Origin: a virus
Lineage: Duplodnaviria > Caudoviricetes
Direction: 5' to 3' (one strand)
Length of the DNA: 64,000 nucleotides
Virus record (IMG/VR): IMGVR_UViG_3300024229_000651
Shown: one piece after another, positions 9,757-28,155 of the stretch
Numbering within the stretch: position 1 is the stretch's first letter
How the letters are laid out: every line of letters begins with the position of its first letter
The notes under the pieces: model-generated
The model's database searches: none
The model's input: only the letters and a program-made list of their open reading frames with translations
Told to the model about the DNA's origin: nothing
Program-made: the position numbers and the translations under genes

Positions 9757-9950
9757 TTTTTCTTACCGCCTTTCATATTAGCACACCAGTGATACATTTT
9801 ACCCTTTTCACCACTGTATTTTTTAGCTTTTGCCCGTAAACTACTTACCGAACCTTTGCAACTTGCGCCTGCTTTTTTGACTCTACCTGGTCTGCTCTTG
9901 CCTTTCTTCTTACCGTCAGCAAAGTTTTCTGTAATTTCAACTATTTTCAT
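9753..9950 (-). CDS. Small Lys/Gly-rich basic protein with CTS-like leader
   Basis: MKIVEITENFADGKKKGK...HWCANMKGGKKK; translationally coupled to its neighbours. Confidence 0.75.
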   Translation of the reverse strand: MKIVEITENFADGKKKGKSRPGRVKKAGASCKGSVSSLRAKAKKYSGEKGKMYHWCANMKGGKKK

Positions 9951-12900
9951 GCGTCTGGCTTGAATTCAAACGCAAACTTTCCGCCAATGCGTGAACTGTA
10001 ATAATTCTTGGCGCCGTCTAAGCGAATTTTACCCCGGAAATTAGGTGGATACAACGCTTCCCATCCTGTTACTCTAGCATTGTCGCCTTGTTTACCCATC
10101 TTGCAGTATAACTGAACAATACTGGACTGGTTAAGGAATGCAATAGCACCTGCACTAAATTGAGGTTCTTCGTTAATCATTGCTGCTACTTTTTTAGCCA
10201 GTAACGCAATTAACGCATATCCTACATTGAATCCAGGTATGTCCTGTTTAGGTGTTCCATAGTTAAATAGTTCTTTCGCCGATTTGCTTAATCCATCGTA
10301 ATCAGTTTTTCCTGCTTTAACGTACTCCATGATTTCTAGTTCTAACTTTTTAGGTAATACACCCAACAGTTCTGCTAATCTAAATGGTCCGTCGATTGCA
10401 GTAGATTCTTGTACAATCTTAATTATTTTAACTGTGTATGCATGTGCTTTGACTAATTCTGGTGGTGCTTTATCGATAGCATCTGCAATGTTCTTAGCAC
10501 TTGCTTTTGCACCCTTGCCGCCTTTACTACTGATGCCAACTTCGGTTCCGTCTGGGCCAATGAAAACACTATCAACCAGTGCATAGTTCATTGCTTGCGG
10601 CCAGAATACTCCAAACGTAGACCACTCGGCTCCGCCCATTAAATCTTGTCTAGCATCTTCAGCTTGTCCGCCCACCATGCCGCTCATCAATGCAACTGGT
10701 CCCATGATTTCACCAAAGTAATCTCTTAGTGCCGGTAAGTTCTGTATTTGGCCTTCAAATTCAGGATGTTGCTGTGCTTGGATACTGTGCAAAGCATCTA
10801 ATAGCTGTTGCTGTATTGCGTGTCCCTGGCTGTTATTCGAGACAGTGTTTATTATGTCATCTACGCTTGTATGCTGATTTTCGTTTTTGATTAAGTGCTG
10901 TGGGTCGATACCAAGGTCTAATTTTAATGCGCCAGCTTTTTGTAATTTCCAACCAGTTGGAACTTGATTATTAGCCCATGCTCCCATCATATCTACACGC
11001 TTCTGCTTAAAATATCGACCCCAGTACACTGGCTTATCATTATTACTAGGATCTGTAAGTGTTGCAATACCGAAAGCTAGACTACCGCTGTTTGGAGTGT
11101 TAGTCCACTCAATTTGTGCATTGAGCTGTTGTTCTATATCTGATGCAAAACTTTCACGCTCTGGTGCATCATCGAACTGTGCACGATCCTGTGGGTAAAC
11201 TTCTACACTGCTGAACTCAAGCGTACTGTCCCCTTTCTTAAATTGGTCGCCCACCACTCGTCCCATTAAACCTTTTGCTTCCGCAAGTATGCTCTTAACG
11301 TGAGAGGAACTCCACTCGTTTAATTTTATTTGACTTTGAACTTCTTCAGGTAGTGCTTGAGAGAAATATTTAACTATACCTCTAGCACATGCATCGTCGC
11401 CAGCTTGCGCTCTAAGATCATGAAATGCATCTAGCATTTCAGGTATAGGCATTACTTGGTATGCAAGCATTTGCTTCTTTAAATCACATACTGGAAAATG
11501 GTCTGCCATTAACCCATTAATAATTTCTGCTCTATTAAAATCGTGCACACTCTCAAAATTCAATGCTCGCATCTCACGCTCGAATTCCAAATCGTCTAAT
11601 TTTTTACGAGTGGCTGCTTTTTTAGCATCAAATTTTGCTGGACCATACTTATCCTGGTCTTTATAAGTTTTCCTATTAGCCGATCTCTTAACTGTTTTCT
11701 TTTTACCAGGTAAACCTTTTGTCCATGCTGTGTCTGGTCTACGATTAGGCAATGAAACTTTTTCTACCCGTTGAATACCCAGTTCTTTACTTGTGGGATT
11801 GGCAGGATCTTTGTATTTTCCATCAGCTGATGCTACTTTCCTTTTGGCACCTAGTCTTGTTTGAGCAACAACTTTTTTATTTGTGCCATCCCTATATACG
11901 ACATTATACAGATATTCACCAGTGCGCAATTCTACTTTTTCATCTTCAGGTGAGGCTTTAGAAGTATCTCTGCGAGCTTGTTTTGCAATTGCTTCATCAA
12001 TTTTATTTTTATCAATTTTTTCTAAAATGGCTAGTTGTTCCAATATTGGCAACTTATCAAATTTGTCAAACGGTGTCATTTTACTTTCCTGTACATCAAA
12101 TTTTATATTAAATCTCTGGCTTAGTAATTTACGATGGTCAGTTTTTAAAAAGCTGTGCGGAACGCCGATTGGTTCGCTCTGATATGTAGTACCAGCTGGA
12201 GCAAAGCCATACTTCTTGACAAACGCATCAACAACAGGTTTATATTCCATCTTTTTGGCTTCAAATTCTGCAATATCCTGTTGTCTTTGTCTAATAGAGC
12301 CTTTGAGTCTTTCTACTTTTTCTGGTTCAGCAACTTTAAGACCTTGCTTTATACCGTCGATCAGTCCTTGTTCATGTTCGATATAACGAGTAGCCTCGTC
12401 CACTTCAAAGCGAGCACGTTTAACTTTGTCTAACTCGTCATCGCTAATCACTTTAAAATCTTGTTGACTGATTGTTGCATTACTATCGGGCTTGTTATCG
12501 CCGAATAGGTCACCGAACAGTGCACGATGCTTATCTGTGGGTATTGCTATAACGTGTCCTTTAGGTGCAGTAATAGTGTATGATGCTTCCGGTGCGTTAG
12601 CATCCTGCTTTTTCAACAAGCTGTTTACAGCCGAAGCCATCTTTTCTAGTTTGTTGTGATGATCTCCCGGGAAGTTTTTCACAAACTCTGACTGTTGTAG
12701 TTCAGTCCACAATGCTTTAGGCGTTAAGCTGAAGTCTTTTAACGCTTGTCTAAATGCTGCAATAGCCGCCGATTTAGGTTCAGCCCTATTAGCACCGCTT
12801 GCAACGTCACTGGCTAACATAGCAAAAGCTCGCACAAAGTATTTCTGTGCTTTAATCATTGTTCTACGCCAGTCTTCGTCATCGCCTTCGGCTTCGAACG

Positions 12901-15028
12901 GCATCTCTTGTTGTGGATTAGCGTTCTTTGCACTTTGTGCATCTGCTAATTCCATGTATGCATTGCTCAATGATTCAATAGCATCTGTATAATGTTTTTC
13001 ACTTGCAATACTTTGGAAAGCAGCTAACACTTTATCGTTAATGCTTTCTGGGTCAACCATTGTTTGAGCTCTTTTAACAACATCGCCGCTTACTTCGTCT
13101 TTGCCTGCAATCATTTTAAACAGTGCTTTGATGTAGTCCTTGCGATATGCTTCTTCATCATGCCCGGCTTGCATCACTGCGGCATAACGGATAACTGCTT
13201 TCATCACTTTGTCGCTCATAGTGTGATAATCGTCGCCACCTGCAACACGGAATTCAATAAGTTTATTTTGCTCTACGTTTTTAGCATCTTTAAAGTTGAT
13301 ACTGCTGAACTTGCCATTACTGATGCCGCCTAACAGTATGTCTTCGAGACCAGCAAGGCTCTTTTCATCCTTGATATCGTTTTGTAGATTTTTGATATAC
13401 TTTCGTACTGTTTCTTGTTGACTCTGTGTATAAGTGTTATGCTCTCTGCCAAACTGCTTTAACACATACTTGTCGCCTAACAGCACAGCCATTTTTAGCT
13501 TGTTAGTTTTAGCGTAGTCCGAATCCATCCAACTCATTGTGACATGCAAACCAGTTGAACTGTTTGTTTCCACATTGTTGTTGTTCATGTACTCAAACAA
13601 ACTCTTCATCTCTTTGAGCATTTCTGCTGGGTTGTCATATACAGGTGAAATAATCTCTGCTTTTGCACCTTCGCCTTCGATTGAGGTGTCATCTTCCACA
13701 CGCCAATGGTCATTGTCTACGCCTTGGCCACTGTGATATACGCCCGGACGTACATCGTTGCTCTTACTGTTGTTGCTGGCCCAATCCTCTAGCATACTAG
13801 CTACAGCATCAACACCGCCGCCTTCGCCGCCTTCGTTGTACAAGTAAATGTCCATTTCGCCTAATAGGCTCCACCAACTGCCGCCGTGTTCTCTGCGAAC
13901 CCAATCGTCCATGTCGTATTGATCCATTGCACGTTGCCAGGATTCGTCCCATGCTTCGCCATTGTCGCGGATCTGTTCCTCTAGCCACTCAATAAATTCG
14001 TCTTCTTTGTACATTTCAACATATTCACGAGGCCATGCTTCATCGTCCCAATTGCTGTACTCTTCCAGCTCGTCCTGCATGTCGTCGATTTCTAATCGCT
14101 CCAGTTTGTCTGCCTTGTACTCTTCCACTTCGTCCATGTCAACATGATCGTTTACAAACTCATCTATGTACGCTTCATCTTCTTTGCGTTCGTTGACTAG
14201 CTCTAGGACAACGTCACTCTCTATTTCGTATACAACTTCTTCTTGTAGCCATTCGCGGTATGCTTCTTCCACACTCTCCACTGCACGTGATCCTTCTTGA
14301 TCGTAAATCAAATCACCGACACGGTTCCAATACAGGTCGTCTAGCCAACTGGTGTCGTCCTCGTCACTGCCTTCGCCTAGGTTAGGCCACACAGTTTCCG
14401 CTTCAAAGCCGCACTGTATGTTCGCATTCAGTGCACCTTGTGCAAGCTCTTTGCTGTTGAAGTTGATTTCAAAAATAGGCTCACCTTGTTCGGTCATTTT
14501 AATTTTACGGGTGAGCTTTTTGATCTTTTTTTGCAAACGATCCCGCTTAAAATGAAAATTACTTGTGCTACTTTTAGATAATTTGTCTAACTTGCCTTCA
14601 GTAAACTCTGGATTAGCCACAAACACTTCTTCGTCGGGGTCGTCTATAACTGAATATTCTTTTGTTTTAGGGTTCTGCACTACTACTGCTTCAGGCTTTG
14701 TGCCTTTTCCGATAGGAGATTTTACTACACCTGCTGATTTTCCATCTTTATCAAAGTATTCCATATCTGTTTTTAGTTCGCCTGCTTTAGCATTAATAAA
14801 TTTTGGAGTCTCTTGATCATTTGCTTTAGGAACTTCTAGACCAGGCGTGGTAGTAGGGCTTCCTAAATCAGGTTTGGCTGCTGTTTTACTTGTAGTAGGT
14901 GATTTTGTAGATGCATTTGCTTTTGCACTTGATCCCATGGATTGTTGGGAAGTAGGTGTACTTGCCCCTGGCTTCATACCATACTCCATAAGTAAATGAT
15001 CTATAGTCCTAATATCTGTGAATTTCAT
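9947..15028 (-). CDS. 1693-aa multidomain protein: COOH-NH2 ligase type 2 (amidoligase) domain plus C-terminal PD-(D/E)XK-like domain
   Basis: GFEAE, WRVEDDTSI..AEIISP, TGLHV, KFSSINF and IEFR amidoligase motifs; YFGE..GP / LVDS / ISSK near the C-terminus. Confidence 0.7.
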   Translation of the reverse strand: MKFTDIRTIDHLLMEYGMKPGASTPTSQQSMGSSAKANASTKSPTTSKTAAKPDLGSPTTTPGLEVPKANDQETPKFINAKAGELKTDMEYFDKDGKSAGVVKSPIGKGTKPEAVVVQNPKTKEYSVIDDPDEEVFVANPEFTEGKLDKLSKSSTSNFHFKRDRLQKKIKKLTRKIKMTEQGEPIFEINFNSKELAQGALNANIQCGFEAETVWPNLGEGSDEDDTSWLDDLYWNRVGDLIYDQEGSRAVESVEEAYREWLQEEVVYEIESDVVLELVNERKEDEAYIDEFVNDHVDMDEVEEYKADKLERLEIDDMQDELEEYSNWDDEAWPREYVEMYKEDEFIEWLEEQIRDNGEAWDESWQRAMDQYDMDDWVRREHGGSWWSLLGEMDIYLYNEGGEGGGVDAVASMLEDWASNNSKSNDVRPGVYHSGQGVDNDHWRVEDDTSIEGEGAKAEIISPVYDNPAEMLKEMKSLFEYMNNNNVETNSSTGLHVTMSWMDSDYAKTNKLKMAVLLGDKYVLKQFGREHNTYTQSQQETVRKYIKNLQNDIKDEKSLAGLEDILLGGISNGKFSSINFKDAKNVEQNKLIEFRVAGGDDYHTMSDKVMKAVIRYAAVMQAGHDEEAYRKDYIKALFKMIAGKDEVSGDVVKRAQTMVDPESINDKVLAAFQSIASEKHYTDAIESLSNAYMELADAQSAKNANPQQEMPFEAEGDDEDWRRTMIKAQKYFVRAFAMLASDVASGANRAEPKSAAIAAFRQALKDFSLTPKALWTELQQSEFVKNFPGDHHNKLEKMASAVNSLLKKQDANAPEASYTITAPKGHVIAIPTDKHRALFGDLFGDNKPDSNATISQQDFKVISDDELDKVKRARFEVDEATRYIEHEQGLIDGIKQGLKVAEPEKVERLKGSIRQRQQDIAEFEAKKMEYKPVVDAFVKKYGFAPAGTTYQSEPIGVPHSFLKTDHRKLLSQRFNIKFDVQESKMTPFDKFDKLPILEQLAILEKIDKNKIDEAIAKQARRDTSKASPEDEKVELRTGEYLYNVVYRDGTNKKVVAQTRLGAKRKVASADGKYKDPANPTSKELGIQRVEKVSLPNRRPDTAWTKGLPGKKKTVKRSANRKTYKDQDKYGPAKFDAKKAATRKKLDDLEFEREMRALNFESVHDFNRAEIINGLMADHFPVCDLKKQMLAYQVMPIPEMLDAFHDLRAQAGDDACARGIVKYFSQALPEEVQSQIKLNEWSSSHVKSILAEAKGLMGRVVGDQFKKGDSTLEFSSVEVYPQDRAQFDDAPERESFASDIEQQLNAQIEWTNTPNSGSLAFGIATLTDPSNNDKPVYWGRYFKQKRVDMMGAWANNQVPTGWKLQKAGALKLDLGIDPQHLIKNENQHTSVDDIINTVSNNSQGHAIQQQLLDALHSIQAQQHPEFEGQIQNLPALRDYFGEIMGPVALMSGMVGGQAEDARQDLMGGAEWSTFGVFWPQAMNYALVDSVFIGPDGTEVGISSKGGKGAKASAKNIADAIDKAPPELVKAHAYTVKIIKIVQESTAIDGPFRLAELLGVLPKKLELEIMEYVKAGKTDYDGLSKSAKELFNYGTPKQDIPGFNVGYALIALLAKKVAAMINEEPQFSAGAIAFLNQSSIVQLYCKMGKQGDNARVTGWEALYPPNFRGKIRLDGAKNYYSSRIGGKFAFEFKPDA

Positions 15029-20651: not shown

Positions 20652-22025
20652 CTAGAAATCATTCTTCTTCATAAACTCACGCATGTTAAGTGCTGTACTC
20701 ACTGTATCCTGCGCTTCAGGTTCTTGCGCAGAAATACTACTATTTCGTTTTAATTGATCTACTAGGCTACTTGTGGTAACAGTCATTGCATCGTCGTCGT
20801 CGTCATCTAAATCTTCAATACGTAATGTGTCAGGATTAAATTTTAAATCCACTTTACTACCGACACCACTACTGCTACGTGTTTTCATAAACTGTATTTG
20901 ATATCTACCACGTTCTCTCATAGCATTACTTGTAAATATACCTACAACATTATCTGCTGTTTGTATTTTACTAATGCCGCCTGCAATATGACTATGATCG
21001 AACTCAATCTCTTCTACAGCACTCCTGCCTAACTGCGATGCTGTTACTAATAATATATCTCGTTCAGAAGCCAAATTGCGTAATTCTTCGGATACATACT
21101 TGTCTTTCACGTATAGATTTTCAGGTGATATCTTAGCACTGATAGGCATCATCAAATCTAAGTAATCCACTAACACTGCATCCACTTTTATATCACTGTT
21201 AATCTCGTATTCTCGAATAAATGCTCTAATATCATTTGTATTAATTCCACTAGGCATTTGTTTTACTCTAAACTTTCCTGCGCCTTTGCCTTTCATTCGG
21301 ACTTTTAAGTCTACATCATCCATATTTTTCATAATTTCTCTGGCGCCGTAACCACTAACCATACTGTCCAGTCTCATACTAATAAGTGGCTCACTAAGTT
21401 CTAAACTTATGTATACAACATTAAGTCCAGCTAAACTCCAATTAACACCAAAGTTCTGTAAAAACAAACTTTTGCCTGCGCCCGATCCTCCTGCGAATAT
21501 TGTTATTTCGCCTCTGTTCAGGCCACCGTATAATTTTCGATCAATGCCTTGCCAACCTGTGCTAACTGCACCTGATTGACTTTTGATATACTGCAATCTT
21601 TCCTTAGGATTTTCAAAATACTCTAAACCTAAATCTTTGACTAGTCCAACTTGTACAGCCTCTTTAATTTTAGTTTCTACTGTACCGTAATCTTGGTTCT
21701 CTAAGAGATCTGTACTTTCAAGAATTGCTTTTTCTAGTGCTTTATGTCTACAAAACTGTTCGAAGTTATCTAGGAACCATTCTATATGATTTTCATTGAT
21801 TCCTTCAATACGTTCTAGTTCCACTCCGGTCTTTGCAGTTATTTGATCAATGGTAGGAATACTATTGTATTCGTTAGCATGATCTTGTAAAAATCCAACA
21901 GTTTCCCTAAAGCGTCTATTAAACATCTCCGGTTGCACTATATTACTTACACGTATAAACAACTCAGGATCTGTTACTAAAAACTTTAAATATAACTCTT
22001 GTATTTCTTCTGTGTATTCCTGCAT
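20652..22025 (-). CDS. Replicative DnaB-like helicase (T4 gp41-like)
   Basis: Walker A GGSGAGKS, YISLEL, VLVDYLDL, TASQLGR, KTRSS. Confidence 0.95.
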   Translation of the reverse strand: MQEYTEEIQELYLKFLVTDPELFIRVSNIVQPEMFNRRFRETVGFLQDHANEYNSIPTIDQITAKTGVELERIEGINENHIEWFLDNFEQFCRHKALEKAILESTDLLENQDYGTVETKIKEAVQVGLVKDLGLEYFENPKERLQYIKSQSGAVSTGWQGIDRKLYGGLNRGEITIFAGGSGAGKSLFLQNFGVNWSLAGLNVVYISLELSEPLISMRLDSMVSGYGAREIMKNMDDVDLKVRMKGKGAGKFRVKQMPSGINTNDIRAFIREYEINSDIKVDAVLVDYLDLMMPISAKISPENLYVKDKYVSEELRNLASERDILLVTASQLGRSAVEEIEFDHSHIAGGISKIQTADNVVGIFTSNAMRERGRYQIQFMKTRSSSGVGSKVDLKFNPDTLRIEDLDDDDDDAMTVTTSSLVDQLKRNSSISAQEPEAQDTVSTALNMREFMKKNDF

Positions 22026-22031
22026 TTTAAA

Positions 22032-22838
22032 CTACTGCCTCTTAGAAAGTATTCTAGTCAATTCTTCTTTAATGTATGATGCTATCAGTTGATTGCCTTC
22101 TTGGTTTGGATGACCGTCTTCAAACCTGTGGTCTACAGATGCCGATGTTAGAGGTTGCGCCCAATTATCTAAATCGACTAACCCCATTAGTATTCTCATA
22201 TAATCCACACTGATCCCAGCAACGTCATTCATCATTTGTAATACATTTGACCCTATTGACATTGACGTAAACAGATAGGGGACTCCTGCATCTTTTAAAT
22301 AATTTTGCAAAAATAGCACTTTTTGTAAATACTCGATCTGCAAATTATTCTTATTCCACGTATATTTTAACATATCGCTTACTGCTAGTAAAGACTTTTG
22401 ATGCATCTTATTATCTTCTATCTTGTTTTGTAAATAAGCGTTGTCTACATGGCTGTCATACAAAAAATTATTGTTTAAAAAACGGGCACCCTCCCTAGTT
22501 TCAAACACGCATTCGCCTGTACAATAATTTATATAGTCTGCCACCAAATCACTATAAAATTCGTGGCGGAATATACTAGAAAATTGTATTACAGCTATCG
22601 TATCGTCAGTACCGTTTTTTTCTAACCATTCCACTGTCTGTCTAATTATTTTATCGTTGCTGTTTCCAGGTAGAGAAATATTATGCAATTCATAATCACT
22701 GGAATCGCTAATAAGGTTGGGCCACAAAAACCCCTCATCCTTAGAAGGACAATGCAAATCTTCTGCTGTTTCGCCGTCTACAATATGCACTAAATCTGCT
22801 CCGGCACTAAAACTGCATCCACTAACTAATAATCTCAT
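22032..22838 (-). CDS. SGNH-hydrolase-like protein
   Basis: GCSFSAG, NISLPGNSN, EDGHPN. Confidence 0.65.
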   Translation of the reverse strand: MRLLVSGCSFSAGADLVHIVDGETAEDLHCPSKDEGFLWPNLISDSSDYELHNISLPGNSNDKIIRQTVEWLEKNGTDDTIAVIQFSSIFRHEFYSDLVADYINYCTGECVFETREGARFLNNNFLYDSHVDNAYLQNKIEDNKMHQKSLLAVSDMLKYTWNKNNLQIEYLQKVLFLQNYLKDAGVPYLFTSMSIGSNVLQMMNDVAGISVDYMRILMGLVDLDNWAQPLTSASVDHRFEDGHPNQEGNQLIASYIKEELTRILSKRQ

Positions 22839-23824
22839 AACATCTTTGCCTGTACTTGTGCCTTAATCTTGTTATCTACTGCATACTTAATTATGCTGGA
22901 TAAGGTTAACAACCTACCATATTTTTGTACAGCGTCGGCAGCGTCTTTGATGTCTTTTTCCCATGGAGGAAAACTTACTTCCCATCCTAATTCCAGTGCT
23001 TGCTCTATTAATTGCTTACCTGGTTGATCTCTGTCAGGACACAGTATAACACGCTTACCCAGTTTATCTATTAAATGTGCTTGCTCTGCTGTAACACTGT
23101 TACCTAATACACTTATACTGTCTATTAATACTGCATCTAGCACACCTTCTGTGACTACTACAATTTCACGCTGGGTATCAACGAACTTGTCAATATTAAA
23201 CACATACCCAGGTGGCATATTACTAAGATATTTAGGAGTCTTCTTGTCTAAAGGATTCACATGCCTGGACGTCCAACCAATCAAATTACCGTTATACATG
23301 AACGGCACTACTAATCGCTTGCTGTACTGTAATTTTAATTCAGTATTGTAGCCAAAATACAGTAGCGTTTTACCGAGCAAACCTCTTTCTCTAGCATACT
23401 GCTTAACATCATGGTCATCGGGTAGTAAATCAATTGTAGTTGCATTCTCGGGTAATTCTATAGTTTCAAACTTAGAAGCACTATACACATATTCGCCTGT
23501 GTCCTCTACATCCAATTCCTCACCGTACTTCATCAAATTCATAATTGTATCATGTATTTGTTTGTCCGGGACAGCTAATGCTGATAGTAATTTTTTGTAC
23601 TTTATACCTAATCTAGGACTCGGTGACCATCCTGTAGTGTAATCACAATTGAAGCAATGGTAACTAATCTTAGGTCCTGTTTGTCTGATGCCACCTCGTT
23701 TGCGCTTATCATCGCATATAGGACAATTAAGCGTAATCCAGCCGCTTGGAGTTTTACCGGATTTAATAGGTAAATTATCCAATAACAGTCGATGTACTTG
23801 TTCTACTAAGTCATGGTGTTGCAT
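22835..23824 (-). CDS. DNA primase (T4 gp61-like)
   Basis: Zn finger CPIC..HCFNC; TOPRIM motifs VTEGVLDA, DRD and DAAD. Confidence 0.93.
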   Translation of the reverse strand: MQHHDLVEQVHRLLLDNLPIKSGKTPSGWITLNCPICDDKRKRGGIRQTGPKISYHCFNCDYTTGWSPSPRLGIKYKKLLSALAVPDKQIHDTIMNLMKYGEELDVEDTGEYVYSASKFETIELPENATTIDLLPDDHDVKQYARERGLLGKTLLYFGYNTELKLQYSKRLVVPFMYNGNLIGWTSRHVNPLDKKTPKYLSNMPPGYVFNIDKFVDTQREIVVVTEGVLDAVLIDSISVLGNSVTAEQAHLIDKLGKRVILCPDRDQPGKQLIEQALELGWEVSFPPWEKDIKDAADAVQKYGRLLTLSSIIKYAVDNKIKAQVQAKML

Positions 23825-23858: not shown

Positions 23859-24689
23859 CTAATTTCTAAGAAGTATTTTATCAACGGAGCCTGATGTTTT
23901 CACAAACTCTACACGTATCCAGTTAGTATTAATTGTAAAATTAAAAGGATCGACTCCTGAAAAAGCAGTTGTGTAAGGAATAACACTCTGGCCGAAATCA
24001 CCTTGCGGATTAATGTTATACCAATCGCTTTCCTGTGTAGGTGTAGACTCTAACGCACTGCCCTGAATTTGTATTTTACCAACAAACTCGTTAAGATAGA
24101 ACCCAATCGTGTGTCGACTATGTCTGTAATTCTTAGCCTGGTTTCCATACATAGCACTAGTGACAAATTTGTCTTCGGCATCACCTAATGTAACATTACC
24201 TGTTTGTATAAAAGATACACTTGATTGGCTAGGTAACGGATGATATTCTAACGGACTTTTTATTTCAAACTGTGTAATTACACCTTCATTTTGATTAGCA
24301 TAAAGTGCATACTGTGATTGTCCCGAATCTGCGCTTTTTGATATAGCCATTTTGTAAAAGCCCGGTCTTAGATCAGTTAGATCACCTGTGCTTAAATCTA
24401 AACGTACTTCCCCCACAGAATCAGCTACGTGCGTTAATTGTTTGAACATAACTCGAGTATTTGTATTCGGATCTATGACTGTGATATACAATGTTTCAGA
24501 TGAAACGTCTTGTAATACCCTATCTCTATTCCTAATAAAGAAATTCACTGTGTTAGTAAATCCTTTTTGCACGACTATTGATGTTTGATTCATTGGTTTG
24601 TTATCCACCTTGATTGTATCGCTAGAAAGAACCAAGTCAATTGACTGATTTTCCAACAAATATAAAATTTTGGCATTATTATTTGACAT
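23859..24689 (-). CDS. Hypothetical beta-rich protein (candidate baseplate/structural)
   Basis: Late promoter at 24720-24727; Ig-like beta pattern (inference). Confidence 0.55.
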   Translation of the reverse strand: MSNNNAKILYLLENQSIDLVLSSDTIKVDNKPMNQTSIVVQKGFTNTVNFFIRNRDRVLQDVSSETLYITVIDPNTNTRVMFKQLTHVADSVGEVRLDLSTGDLTDLRPGFYKMAISKSADSGQSQYALYANQNEGVITQFEIKSPLEYHPLPSQSSVSFIQTGNVTLGDAEDKFVTSAMYGNQAKNYRHSRHTIGFYLNEFVGKIQIQGSALESTPTQESDWYNINPQGDFGQSVIPYTTAFSGVDPFNFTINTNWIRVEFVKTSGSVDKILLRN

Positions 24690-24748
24690 ATCATGTTCTC
24701 TGTACCATTCTTTGTATAGTATTTATCTCCTGCATATAAATATTACTG

Positions 24749-25120
24749 ATGACAAGTAATGATGATTTACAAAAAAAATTCCCTTTCTTAACGTGCATTA
24801 TCTTCAATAACGCAGAATATGTTGGTATAGTTCAGAACAAAGACAATCATATAATAAGTTTTTATGATATAGAGAAGTGTGCAAACAATAAAGAAAAACG
24901 ACTCATGTTAGACCATGGCGACCTATGGTGGTGGGAGAGCAACCGGCTCTTACCGATAGATGTATTTTTATACACTGAGATGAAGTCATTCAAACATACC
25001 TTAAGATCATTTATGGTGAAAGAAGTTGAAGTTGTCTTTGGCCCTGTAACCAGTATGCAGAATATTTTAAAGAAAAGAATCAAGCGCCGCACTGTGCAGC
25101 TAGTTAAAAAAGTAGACTAA
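24749..25120 (+). CDS. Hypothetical protein
   Basis: Divergent gene with TATAAATA (24735-24742) 6 nt before the ATG. Confidence 0.7.
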   Translation: MTSNDDLQKKFPFLTCIIFNNAEYVGIVQNKDNHIISFYDIEKCANNKEKRLMLDHGDLWWWESNRLLPIDVFLYTEMKSFKHTLRSFMVKEVEVVFGPVTSMQNILKKRIKRRTVQLVKKVD

Positions 25121-25692
25121 GTTAACCCCTCGCAAATCAAGTTTAATTGCACAATAATTGCTGTTGCAAACGCAATTGCATGCGCCTTCTTAAAATAATA
25201 CTCACCACTTACGGGTTTATCCCACACTGTTTTGACAATTTCTTCAAACGACTCGCCTATTAAATGCTTTTTAGCAGGACGTATAATAGCCAATATCATC
25301 GCCAATTGTTCTACATTTACAGGTTTATAGTCTTTAACTATGTGGGCATAGTTGTTAATGTGATATAACTGACTGACAACCTCTGCATGCAGTAGTAGGT
25401 CCCACATAGGCTCAGTATTTAATAGCTTATCTAAATGTGTTTCATCACGAACGGTTTGATAGATAGTGTTATTTAAAAAATCTACTTTGAAATATCCAGC
25501 TTTTTCAGCTTCTTTATGATCTATGGTACTGTAGCCCTTTAAAGGAAAAGTTGGTATAGGCTGGAAATAAACGCCAGTCTTATGCTTCTCAAATTCTGAG
25601 TCACGCTTTATAGCAGCAGGTATATGGTTGATCAAGTTCAAGAACTTGTCTCTATCAGCCATATCGATATCTACATCAAAATTAATCTGCAT
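25117..25692 (-). CDS. Miniature DNA polymerase III alpha (DnaE)-like protein
   Basis: FDVDIDMAD (DxD), KHKTGVYF, YFKVDFLN, LAIIRP and FKKAHAIAFA parallel DnaE PDxDxD / HAAG / KxDFL / ALxRP / FNKSH motifs. Confidence 0.75.
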   Translation of the reverse strand: MQINFDVDIDMADRDKFLNLINHIPAAIKRDSEFEKHKTGVYFQPIPTFPLKGYSTIDHKEAEKAGYFKVDFLNNTIYQTVRDETHLDKLLNTEPMWDLLLHAEVVSQLYHINNYAHIVKDYKPVNVEQLAMILAIIRPAKKHLIGESFEEIVKTVWDKPVSGEYYFKKAHAIAFATAIIVQLNLICEGLT

Positions 25693-26023
25693 TTTTCATC
25701 TTATTAAGCATTTGAACATTTTCAAACAGTGAGCGTAATTCATTGTCTTCGGGTAAGTTATTAATTGTTTCAATTAGTGCATCAAGTAACTTAATTTTTT
25801 GCTCGTCGATTTTTGCACTTCCTACGTATAAAGAGTTATCTAGTTCTATAGTGTCACTAGAAGTGGGACCGGTTAGGATAATATCATCTAGATTCAATGT
25901 ATTCAAATCAAAGGATGTAATAGTATCAGTATACATTGAATCGTGTGTAGAAATACTTAAAGGTGAGTCTACTGTAACAACGTTAAAATCTAACGGGTAA
26001 TATGGGTCATTGGGGTCATGCAT
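25682..26023 (-). CDS. Acidic hypothetical protein
   Basis: Co-oriented ORF overlapping its neighbours. Confidence 0.55.
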   Translation of the reverse strand: MHDPNDPYYPLDFNVVTVDSPLSISTHDSMYTDTITSFDLNTLNLDDIILTGPTSSDTIELDNSLYVGSAKIDEQKIKLLDALIETINNLPEDNELRSLFENVQMLNKMKNAD

Positions 26024-26264
26024 ATAAATTACTCCATTTTATTAATTTCTTTTGCTTCGCTATTTTACGTTCTTCTATATGGTCGTCGGTGACATAGCCG
26101 TGCTGTTTTAGTAATTCTATCATTAGTATAACATCACCGATCTCATCCTGCAAGTTATTTAAGTATTTTGTTTTTCCGTTACTGCGGATAACTTTACTAC
26201 AGGCTTGTATTAATTCGCCGCATTCTTCCATAGTGTTAACTAATAATTCAACTTGTCTTTCCAT
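26016..26264 (-). CDS. MazG-like nucleotide pyrophosphohydrolase
   Basis: MEECGELIQA...LQDEIGDV (EExxE...EIxD). Start set at MERQV, after the GAGGAG SD. Confidence 0.8.
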   Translation of the reverse strand: MERQVELLVNTMEECGELIQACSKVIRSNGKTKYLNNLQDEIGDVILMIELLKQHGYVTDDHIEERKIAKQKKLIKWSNLYA

Positions 26265-26309
26265 ATTATAACTCCTCATATAAAAGGGCGTCCATGCCCT
26301 AGTAATCAA

Positions 26310-26830: not shown

Positions 26831-27490
26831 TTAAATTTCCTTATTTTTAAACTCTTCTGCAAGTGGGAATATCTTTGCAATAACATCTGCTACAACATGG
26901 GCAATATCCATATGCTCTTGTTGTGTACCATTGGCCCCACGTAACTCAATGTAATGAATCCAACTACGCAACGTACCGTTAACGTACAGCCTGCTTAACG
27001 TGTTTCCTTCCGGTAGTACTGCTCTTGCCTGCTCTTTAGCAATACCGTTGCTTACAGCCCACGTATAAGCGTCTGTGGCGGCTTTTATCACTTCCCGTTG
27101 GCGTTTATGCCATTCGATTTCTAAGCCGTCATTGTCTGATTTAATGCTGTTCTGTCTATTCTTAGGATCTTGTAATCGTGCTTCACGAGTCATAAAGTCT
27201 AAGTCCTGTGTTGGGTCAGCATAACGTTGACTAAACTCCTGGAAACTAAAACTTCTATGACGTAGCAATTGTCTTGCTATGTCTCTGGTTGTTTCTACTT
27301 CCAAACAAACGCTCACCATTTCAAGTGGGGACCAGTGCTTGTGTTTCATCAAATACTTTACAAGTTTTTCATTTGTTAGTTTATTGTTTTGATTATCTGG
27401 ATTACTTACTCTTGCACAGTATGCAACTAAATCTAATGCTGAATCACTGTGATCCGGCGCTTGACTATGACTGATTAATTTTACTTTCAT
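26831..27490 (-). CDS. thyX: Flavin-dependent thymidylate synthase
   Basis: HWSPLE, RQLLRHRSFSFQEFSQRY (ThyX motif), LRSWIHY. Confidence 0.96.
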   Translation of the reverse strand: MKVKLISHSQAPDHSDSALDLVAYCARVSNPDNQNNKLTNEKLVKYLMKHKHWSPLEMVSVCLEVETTRDIARQLLRHRSFSFQEFSQRYADPTQDLDFMTREARLQDPKNRQNSIKSDNDGLEIEWHKRQREVIKAATDAYTWAVSNGIAKEQARAVLPEGNTLSRLYVNGTLRSWIHYIELRGANGTQQEHMDIAHVVADVIAKIFPLAEEFKNKEI

Positions 27491-28155
27491 ATATTTGCAT
27501 CCTTGCATGCTTGTTTAATTGTTTCGACTTCCGCCTTGTTGGTTTTAAAGACTTTCATCCAAAAAGGAGGATCGATCAGTTCTTTAATCATTTCAACTTG
27601 CTCCGAAGACAGTCTTGTTAAAAGTTGATCTCCTGTGTTACACAGGTATAATACCCAAGGGCTAATTTTTGCAGCTCGGATATCATATACAGCTCTAGGC
27701 GAGGAAACTGTAGCAAAATAATCTTGCCAACTGTAGTCGCTTTCCTTGCTCCATTCTGCAAGATATATAATTGTGCGTTCTAGTGCTTTTAGTCCGGGTT
27801 CTTTTTTTAAGAACTCCCTCAAATATGTTTCATATTGTTTGTCGCTGGGCCAATCTTTTAATTTAATGCCGTTCTTTATAAGCCACTCTGTGTAAAGTTC
27901 TGGACTCATCCATTCATTTAATTTGCAAGCTCTTCCGAATTTGACAAACGCCTCATAGTACTGACTTTGTATAAAGTCTTCCATACTTTTAGGCTTAGTT
28001 GCAGATGTATTCATCTCATAAAACATTTGAAAGGCCCTATGGCCCAAGCGTACATGGCTCAAATCTTTATCGGACCAGCGTCTTTTTTTAACACACATAT
28101 GTGCACTTAGAGTACGCTCGGTAGTAAAGGACTTTTTACACCACTTGCATTCCAT
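27487..28155 (-). CDS. Hypothetical protein with N-terminal C2H2-like zinc finger
   Basis: CKWC...HMC. Confidence 0.65.
   Translation of the reverse strand: MECKWCKKSFTTERTLSAHMCVKKRRWSDKDLSHVRLGHRAFQMFYEMNTSATKPKSMEDFIQSQYYEAFVKFGRACKLNEWMSPELYTEWLIKNGIKLKDWPSDKQYETYLREFLKKEPGLKALERTIIYLAEWSKESDYSWQDYFATVSSPRAVYDIRAAKISPWVLYLCNTGDQLLTRLSSEQVEMIKELIDPPFWMKVFKTNKAEVETIKQACKDANI

Follow-up and report, generated by a model that had tools for sequence, protein, structure and literature searches.

What does a gene of only 191 codons do with the catalytic motifs of the bacterial replicase DnaE? The question is raised by a 64,000-base stretch of DNA, here called the window, which corresponds to bases 185549-249548 of the 339,794-base virus record IMGVR_UViG_3300024229_000651. 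The record is 91% complete and its source is an uncultured marine giant phage of about 340 kb. At window positions 25117..25692, on the minus strand, lies an intact open reading frame (ORF) that starts with ATG, ends with TAG and encodes 191 residues (P0001); the opposite, plus-strand frame is riddled with stops. An earlier note on this DNA had taken the product for a 'palm-only' DnaE polymerase that stands alone and serves a non-replicative purpose. Our analysis bears out the kinship and changes the reading. The gene very probably encodes the C-terminal, metal- and template/deoxynucleoside triphosphate (dNTP)-binding subunit of a split minimal Pol III alpha, that is, of a two-gene family C polymerase core whose heterodimer likely acts as a templated DNA polymerase aiding the phage's family B replicase.

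The 191-residue protein and its partner

The resemblance to DnaE begins with five short motifs that follow one another in DnaE order, as the earlier note had pointed out: DVDID (D6-D10), KHKTGVY (K36-Y42), KVDFL (K69-L73), IIRP (I136-P139) and FKKAHA (F167-A172). Their key residues can be placed on the Escherichia coli enzyme. The catalytic DxDxD strand (codons D6-V-D8-I-D10; 25663..25677, on the minus strand like all motifs that follow) corresponds to E. coli D401/D403/D405. Just past the position of a deleted thumb, the H..G motif (H37-K-T-G40; 25573..25584) corresponds to K510-H511..G514, its E. coli counterpart being the GKHAGGVV segment at 509-517. The third catalytic aspartate is found in K69-V-D71 (25480..25488), equivalent to K553 and D555, and two fingers motifs complete the series, the 'IRP' motif with codons R138-P139 (25276..25281; E. 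coli R639-P640) and F167-K-K-A-H171 (25180..25194; E. coli F756-N-K758-S-H760).

These positions are strongly conserved among 99 diverse homologues reaching down to 27% identity (alignment A2). D6, D8, K69, D71 and P139 are invariant, which includes the three acidic catalytic positions (D6, D8 and D71) that had been noticed as intact, and D10, H37, G40, R138, K168 and H171 are each kept in at least 90% of the sequences. The E. coli counterpart of H171, H760, is what we take to be the sugar gate of family C enzymes; if this role holds, the conservation of H171 would fit the use of dNTPs.

Searches with the single 191-residue sequence reveal its family and little beyond. PHROGs places it in phrog_11778, 'DNA polymerase' (E = 3.8e-65, a 197-position profile), the DnaE-length phrog_405 matches weakly, Pfam gives no match, and the PDB returns chance matches only (E above 0.08), so that family profiles are needed. 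With the profile of the 99 homologues, the PDB search yields DnaE chains only (E = 3e-5 to 5e-4), matching in three collinear pieces, profile positions 5-21 with E. coli 402-418, 54-140 with 538-641 and 152-179 with 740-768; K69/D71 pair with E. coli K553/D555. An hhalign comparison of E. coli DnaE 322-642 with an alignment that combines naturally fused forms, described below, and separate halves reaches 97.4% probability, and the match runs across the junction. It sets the DxDxD of the fused form on E. coli D401/D403/D405, which alignment A1 carries over to D6/D8/D10 of the 191-residue protein. A different register given by BLASTP and HMMER, with D6/D8 on D403/D405, was rejected. We prefer D401/D403 because of the hhalign result, because the fused forms read A-D-F-D-I-D where E. 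coli reads P-D-F-D-V-D, and because of the points at which structural alignments start, Taq 458 and PolC 968, which are consistent with it.

Structure prediction, a check that the earlier note had proposed, agrees with the profiles. The AlphaFold2 model of the protein has a predicted local distance difference test score (pLDDT) of 96 and a predicted template modelling score (pTM) of 0.86. In VIA comparisons it aligns with Taq Pol III alpha 458-837 (Z 10.3, root-mean-square deviation 3.5), PolC 968-1295 (Z 9.7) and E. coli Pol III alpha 397-780 (Z 8.6). Taking Taq, E. coli and Mycobacterium tuberculosis DnaE and PolC together, the scores lie between Z 6.5 and 10.3 over 185-190 of the 191 residues, and the best unrelated fold reaches Z 3.4. 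Profile, structure and residue-conservation matches therefore confirm a DnaE-like nature beyond chance.

The description 'palm-only' does not hold. The second half of the palm is present; about one third of the fingers is kept as well (E. coli 561-641 and 740-780, with 642-739 and everything beyond about 780 lost), and a part of the palm is missing. The chain of this protein, from here on the C-half, opens with the DxD strand, five residues ahead of the first catalytic aspartate, and therefore has no counterpart of anything N-terminal of D401; the Pol-beta fold's first strand, the preceding helices and the G-S motif, which binds the nucleoside triphosphate (NTP), are all missing. According to the profile and structural alignments, the thumb of about 80 residues (E. 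coli 433-510) is replaced by a tight beta-hairpin with strands at 24-30 and 33-42.

The missing piece is encoded at another site of the genome. Searching the rest of the record for complementary DnaE fragments, which had also been suggested beforehand, retrieved a 170-residue ORF (P0002; G000:C1:105146-105658, minus strand) that lies 79,891 bases before the start of the window, on the same strand as the C-half and 105 kb upstream of it. It is the only ORF in the record matched by PF07733 (DNA_pol3_alpha; E = 1.4e-9), a family that does not match the C-half, and it also matches phrog_11127, 'DNA polymerase'. This N-half aligns with E. coli DnaE 237-392 and ends 3-4 residues past the equivalent of E. 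coli FERFL, where the C-half begins. It carries GVGRGSS, and the GxGRGSS..S motif is invariant in 29 sequences. A Pol-beta-like palm with GS motif, DxD and third aspartate is complete only in both proteins together, the GS motif being on the N-half and the aspartates on the C-half. A separate observation concerns the N-terminal 80-85 residues or so of the N-half, which form a small alpha/beta region of pLDDT 52-76 in the model of a fused form (ma94660cf2873, residues 1-90). In structural alignments it falls on a portion of DnaE's PHP region (the chain ranges begin at residues 17-50), and judging from the model it could be a PHP vestige, though it has no PHP family match.

Other parts of Pol III do not turn up. 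Across the record phrog_405 finds the ORFs of the two halves and nothing else, and around the C-half gene neither this family nor PF07733 detects further DnaE-like DNA, in keeping with the earlier remark that flanking remnants are lacking. PHP, Pol III finger and HhH_6 families (PF02811, PF17657 and PF14579) give no match at E values up to 10 in the 91%-complete record, and beta-clamp and DnaQ-type exonuclease families were not found in it either. The genome has no PHP, thumb, clamp-binding or OB parts; the pair is therefore not a full DnaE in pieces. The possibility, raised beforehand, that the remaining DnaE domains are encoded elsewhere as a split polymerase thus came true for the N-terminal half of the palm and not for the other domains. 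The phage does encode a T4-type family B polymerase, as had been assumed (PF00136 in a 918-residue ORF), together with a gp23-type capsid protein (PF07068 Gp23, E = 2.3e-81).

Natural fusions, co-occurrence and selection

Nature has joined the two halves in a few relatives. An exhaustive search of 1.84 billion representatives returned 411 relatives of the C-half. Those aligned over their full length have about 180-219 residues and the shorter ones are partial, with a single exception of 375 residues. In this protein, residues 41-181 correspond to the N-half (35% identity, E = 3e-16) and residues 191-372 to the C-half, and PF07733 spans the joint. Counting this one, there are three natural fused proteins of 375-376 residues from metagenome data (P0213, P0275 and P0276); the other two come from other data sets, and the three are 78-81% identical to one another. 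The linker between the halves measures eight residues. In a quick maximum-likelihood tree, which is effectively unrooted, the three fused forms make up one clade (Shimodaira-Hasegawa-like approximate likelihood ratio test support 100) inside a supported clade (96) of split C-halves, and this nesting suggests that the fusion is secondary rather than ancestral.

The fused form shows what kind of enzyme the two halves resemble when taken together. Its model (pLDDT 89.8, pTM 0.87) has 19 significant Foldseek matches, all of them family C polymerases. VIA gives Z 22.1 to both M. tuberculosis DnaE1 and Taq Pol III alpha and Z 15.4 to E. coli, with a range of 13.8-22.1 for C-family polymerases overall; CCA-adding enzymes, MenT toxins, Cid1 and other nucleotidyltransferases score Z 3.9 or less.

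Some longer matches proved to be of another kind. P0123 and P0124, longer matches to the C-half, are not fusions of N-half and C-half; they are chimeras on contigs of 1.4-1.7 kb with reverse-transcriptase-like and methyltransferase parts. Weak relatives of the fused form, P0288 and P0289 (540-551 residues, from metagenome and NCBI data), combine PHP and DNA_pol3_alpha within about 550 residues; they could be DnaE-like proteins of intermediate length, or else gene calls that were cut short.

Among cultured phages the enzyme is found in parts. A tblastn search with the fused protein hits 96 cultured-phage records in 188 places, no single one of which covers 80% of the query, and in all 96 the parts lie in separate places or one part only is found; the 191-residue query likewise finds 96 records with an identical genus breakdown. 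Two viral records with the N-half reach a completeness of at least 90%, and both have the C-half as well. The distance between the halves amounts to 79-180 kb in four uncultured records, 34 kb in K64-1 and 44 kb in PA5oct. At the nucleotide level, a megablast of the 8 kb around the gene against cultured phages produced no match.

The C-half is also abundant and well kept. It forms 2670 clusters at 90% identity, among which 120 listed ones span 187-203 residues, and on related viral contigs the complete coding sequences, 82 in number, all encode 179-203 residues. The ratio of nonsynonymous to synonymous substitution rates (dN/dS), computed for 397 pairs with dS between 0.1 and 1.5, has a median of 0.107 and a maximum of 0.28. 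Constant length and strong purifying selection are what the earlier note had asked of a minimised C-family enzyme, and they argue against a decaying fragment.

Gene neighbourhood and probable function

The surroundings of the C-half were compared in 80 related loci with 3-kb flanks, where most shortfalls are due to contig or flank ends. Directly downstream and in opposite orientation, in all 80 loci, lies a gene of phrog_11637, here of 123 residues (24749..25120, plus strand; E = 1.5e-35, function unknown), whose stop overlaps that of the C-half by 4 nucleotides; PA5oct has an opposite-strand gene, EST35_0221, at this position. It is the sole plus-strand gene in a long minus-strand replication module. 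Next comes a virion-structural-like protein of 276 residues (23859..24689, minus strand; phrog_14467), syntenic in 68 of the loci and represented in PA5oct by EST35_0222, which carries the annotation of a structural protein identified by mass spectrometry. A gene of a structural family between a polymerase half and a primase is in an odd location. The primase itself is of DnaG type, with zinc ribbon plus Toprim (22835..23824, minus strand; phrog_47, 1.5e-42), and keeps its place in 74 of the 80 loci and also in K64-1 and PA5oct. A DnaB-like replicative helicase (20652..22025, minus strand; phrog_19, 2.9e-75) is situated farther out, often beyond the 3-kb flanks of the related loci. The gene order is identical in PA5oct (EST35_0220 to 0224) and similar in K64-1 (gp158 to gp162). 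Downstream of the replication module, an ORF of 1693 residues occupies 9947-15028 on the minus strand.

On the upstream side, an ORF of 113 residues without a family match (25682..26023, minus strand) ends with a stop that overlaps the C-half start by 11 nucleotides. This overlap suggests translational coupling of the two; the ORF is kept in only 16 of the 80 loci. MazG (26016-26309) and ThyX (26831-27508), which had drawn attention earlier as neighbours, do lie upstream of the C-half, and this neighbourhood recurs in only 33-44 of the 80 loci, many of which end inside the 3-kb flank. At the second locus, the N-half is followed on the minus strand by a 147-residue ORF and a 121-residue GroES-like ORF (L001:1051-1494 and L001:686-1051; G000:C1 about 104.3-105.1 kb). 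PA5oct shows a like order of N-half, hypothetical gene and chaperonin. As a GroES-like gene follows within two genes of the N-half in both, synteny between very distant phages extends to the second locus too.

How would such an enzyme work? Most likely, N-half and C-half would dock non-covalently into one Pol-beta-like active site, to which the N-half would contribute the GS motif and strand 1 and the C-half the three aspartates, K69 and the fingers motifs. The heterodimer would then, again most likely, add dNTPs to a primer on a template with low processivity; synthesis would cover short distances only, because there is no thumb and no clamp contact. It would presumably assist the family B replicase of the phage in replication or repair, possibly at the primase and helicase, since the position beside their genes suggests work at the replication fork. 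A more specific version can be imagined, in which the mini Pol III extends primers at the DnaG-type primase and DnaB helicase, laying down a short DNA stretch on RNA primers before handing over to the family B replicase. We regard this version as possible and rather doubtful.

Several points weigh against a heterodimeric templated polymerase. The literature searched held no biochemical or genetic data on any family member, and the case for a heterodimer is drawn from fusion, co-occurrence and fold logic. A thumb, clamp-binding motif, OB domain and proofreading partner are all lacking, which bears on how primer and template would be held, and the halves are transcribed from distant loci. Expression data are a last such point. 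For 4.8 kb of sequence surrounding the gene, 94-99% of the words recur in six seawater metatranscriptome runs, and in four runs contigs identical to the window span the whole C-half gene. They lend weak support to its expression, as such contigs give neither strand nor level and DNA carry-over is possible. In these four runs the contigs all end at 24701-24746 and restart exactly at 24771. This gap, which falls between the genes for the structural-like protein and the small convergent protein, could mark a transcript boundary or come from a break in the assembly.

Among the alternatives, the one that fares best accepts that the halves form one enzyme and assigns it a template-independent or small-molecule nucleotidyltransferase activity, as in tailing, signal-nucleotide synthesis or DNA/RNA modification. 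The reduced architecture could be taken this way, with thumb, clamp-binding region and OB domain gone and the fingers cut to about one third, and so could the presence of a full family B replicase in the same genome and the position of the gene downstream of the nucleotide-metabolism genes MazG and ThyX. However, IRP, FKKxH and the K-x-D strand, which are the elements that contact primer-template and dNTP in DnaE, show little or no variation, and the fused model attains Z 22 with C-family enzymes only, whereas terminal transferases, CCA-adding enzymes, MenT and CD-NTases remain below Z 4. The MazG/ThyX link, moreover, is much less constant than the primase link, which extends across phage families. 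Retained fingers motifs and primase/helicase synteny thus point towards templated DNA synthesis, and an untemplated transferase appears unlikely.

Far less plausible is a C-half that works alone as a self-sufficient 'palm-only' nucleotidyltransferase, the reading from which the earlier note had started. In its favour, the ORF is intact, with a start and a stop codon of its own, and none of the three acidic residues is missing, but the first Pol-beta strand and the G-S motif reside on the separate 170-residue protein; related phages have both parts, and one natural clade joins them in a single chain. The claim of a stand-alone enzyme has to be given up. There is next to no chance that a split intein restores a covalent bond between the halves. 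The trans-spliced split DnaE genes of cyanobacteria provide a precedent, but here the N-half ends 3-4 residues past the FERFL equivalent and the C-half starts 3-5 before DxD; with fewer than six residues beyond DnaE-homologous sequence at the split ends, there is no room for an intein of about 100 plus 35 residues. Pfam detects no intein or Hint family in either half, and in the fused forms a linker of eight residues suffices. Finally, a decaying fragment of a captured host dnaE, an idea that could appeal only to the small fraction of DnaE covered, is already refuted by thousands of homologues of constant length, by the low dN/dS values and invariant catalytic residues, and by a split point and synteny that are alike from marine phages to PA5oct, RaK2 and Atu_ph07.

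Relation to known polymerases

The present copy is a further member of a family that was described from sequence in 2021, and it adds no new principle. Iyer, Anantharaman, Krishnan, Burroughs and Aravind (Viruses 2021, 13:63, PMC7824862) reported a minimal split Pol III alpha in group 2.2 (T4-like) jumbo phages. According to sections 3.4.1 and 3.5 and Figure 3b of that paper, it consists of an N-terminal NTP-binding and a C-terminal Mg-/template-binding protein encoded by distant genes; it is accompanied by a family B polymerase, without other Pol III domains, and cooperation with the family B enzyme in one-strand synthesis or in repair was suggested. The phage studied here shares the two-protein layout, the family B polymerase, the gp23-type capsid, the T4-like replisome and the lack of other Pol III domains. 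In particular, it has a Mg-binding C-protein of about 190 residues, a distant N-protein, PolB, a gp23-type capsid, DnaB and a DnaG-type primase, and the cultured members PA5oct, Atu_ph07, RaK2, K64-1, 121Q and GAP32 contain direct homologues with 38-54% identity. There is no difference in kind; the present copy simply comes from a marine phage of 340 kb that is uncultured, with 105 kb between its halves. The fused clade is seen in our analysis, and the cited sections of PMC7824862 describe split forms only. We found no experimental follow-up to this enzyme in the literature, and the available parts of the PaBG paper, the PA5oct omics paper, a 2026 jumbo-phage review and a 2026 survey of bacterial polymerases contain no mention of it. 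Separately encoded parts are also the trait shared with a split family B polymerase of chimalliviruses, which, as far as the accessible text of the report goes (bioRxiv 2026, PMC13648687), serves as main replicase; polymerase family and phage group are different there.

What makes the family worth attention is its economy and its spread. No smaller version of the bacterial replicase core is known than these two chains, which together have about 360 residues, and it occurs very frequently among large uncultured phages, marine ones included. If an active site divided between the NTP-binding motif and the aspartates were shown to reassemble from two proteins, this would be new for family C. For experimenters, the natural fusions offer single-chain constructs, alongside confident models and a fixed link to primase and helicase.

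Compared with bacterial DnaE and PolC (PDB 2HNH, 2HPI, 3E0D, 5LEW and 3F2B), the phage enzyme shows the same Pol-beta-like palm and equivalent catalytic and fingers residues. It differs in size, DnaE having more than 1100 residues, and in what is missing: a match to the PHP family, the thumb, the beta-binding domain, HhH and OB as well as the tau-binding region. Some two thirds of the fingers have been lost, and the polypeptide is interrupted within the catalytic fold. The set that defines a full-length replicative DnaE, with PHP, thumb, complete fingers, beta-clamp-binding motif and OB fold, is thus not what the two phage genes encode.

Cyanobacteria likewise produce a family C polymerase from two distant genes, dnaE-n and dnaE-c. 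Their halves carry intein parts and are spliced into a full-length DnaE, and the cut lies in the fingers. The phage enzyme, in contrast, is without intein, minimal and cut in the palm just before DxD.

In terms of function, the closest analogy, and an analogy only, is offered by replisomes with two polymerases, such as PolC plus DnaE in Bacillus subtilis or Pol alpha plus Pol delta/epsilon in eukaryotes, in which a main replicase is joined by a second polymerase encoded with the primase or acting at it; in the phages compared, the C-half gene consistently lies just upstream of those for primase and helicase. The role of a second polymerase in a T4-type replisome would bear on the origin of such arrangements. 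Should the doubtful primer-extension version be true, the phage enzyme would, as a family C enzyme, take the place that Pol alpha has in eukaryotes or DnaE in Bacillus, and would be built as a non-covalent heterodimer with a two-chain active site. The combination would nevertheless be its own, with a main replicase of family B and a predicted accessory enzyme of family C.

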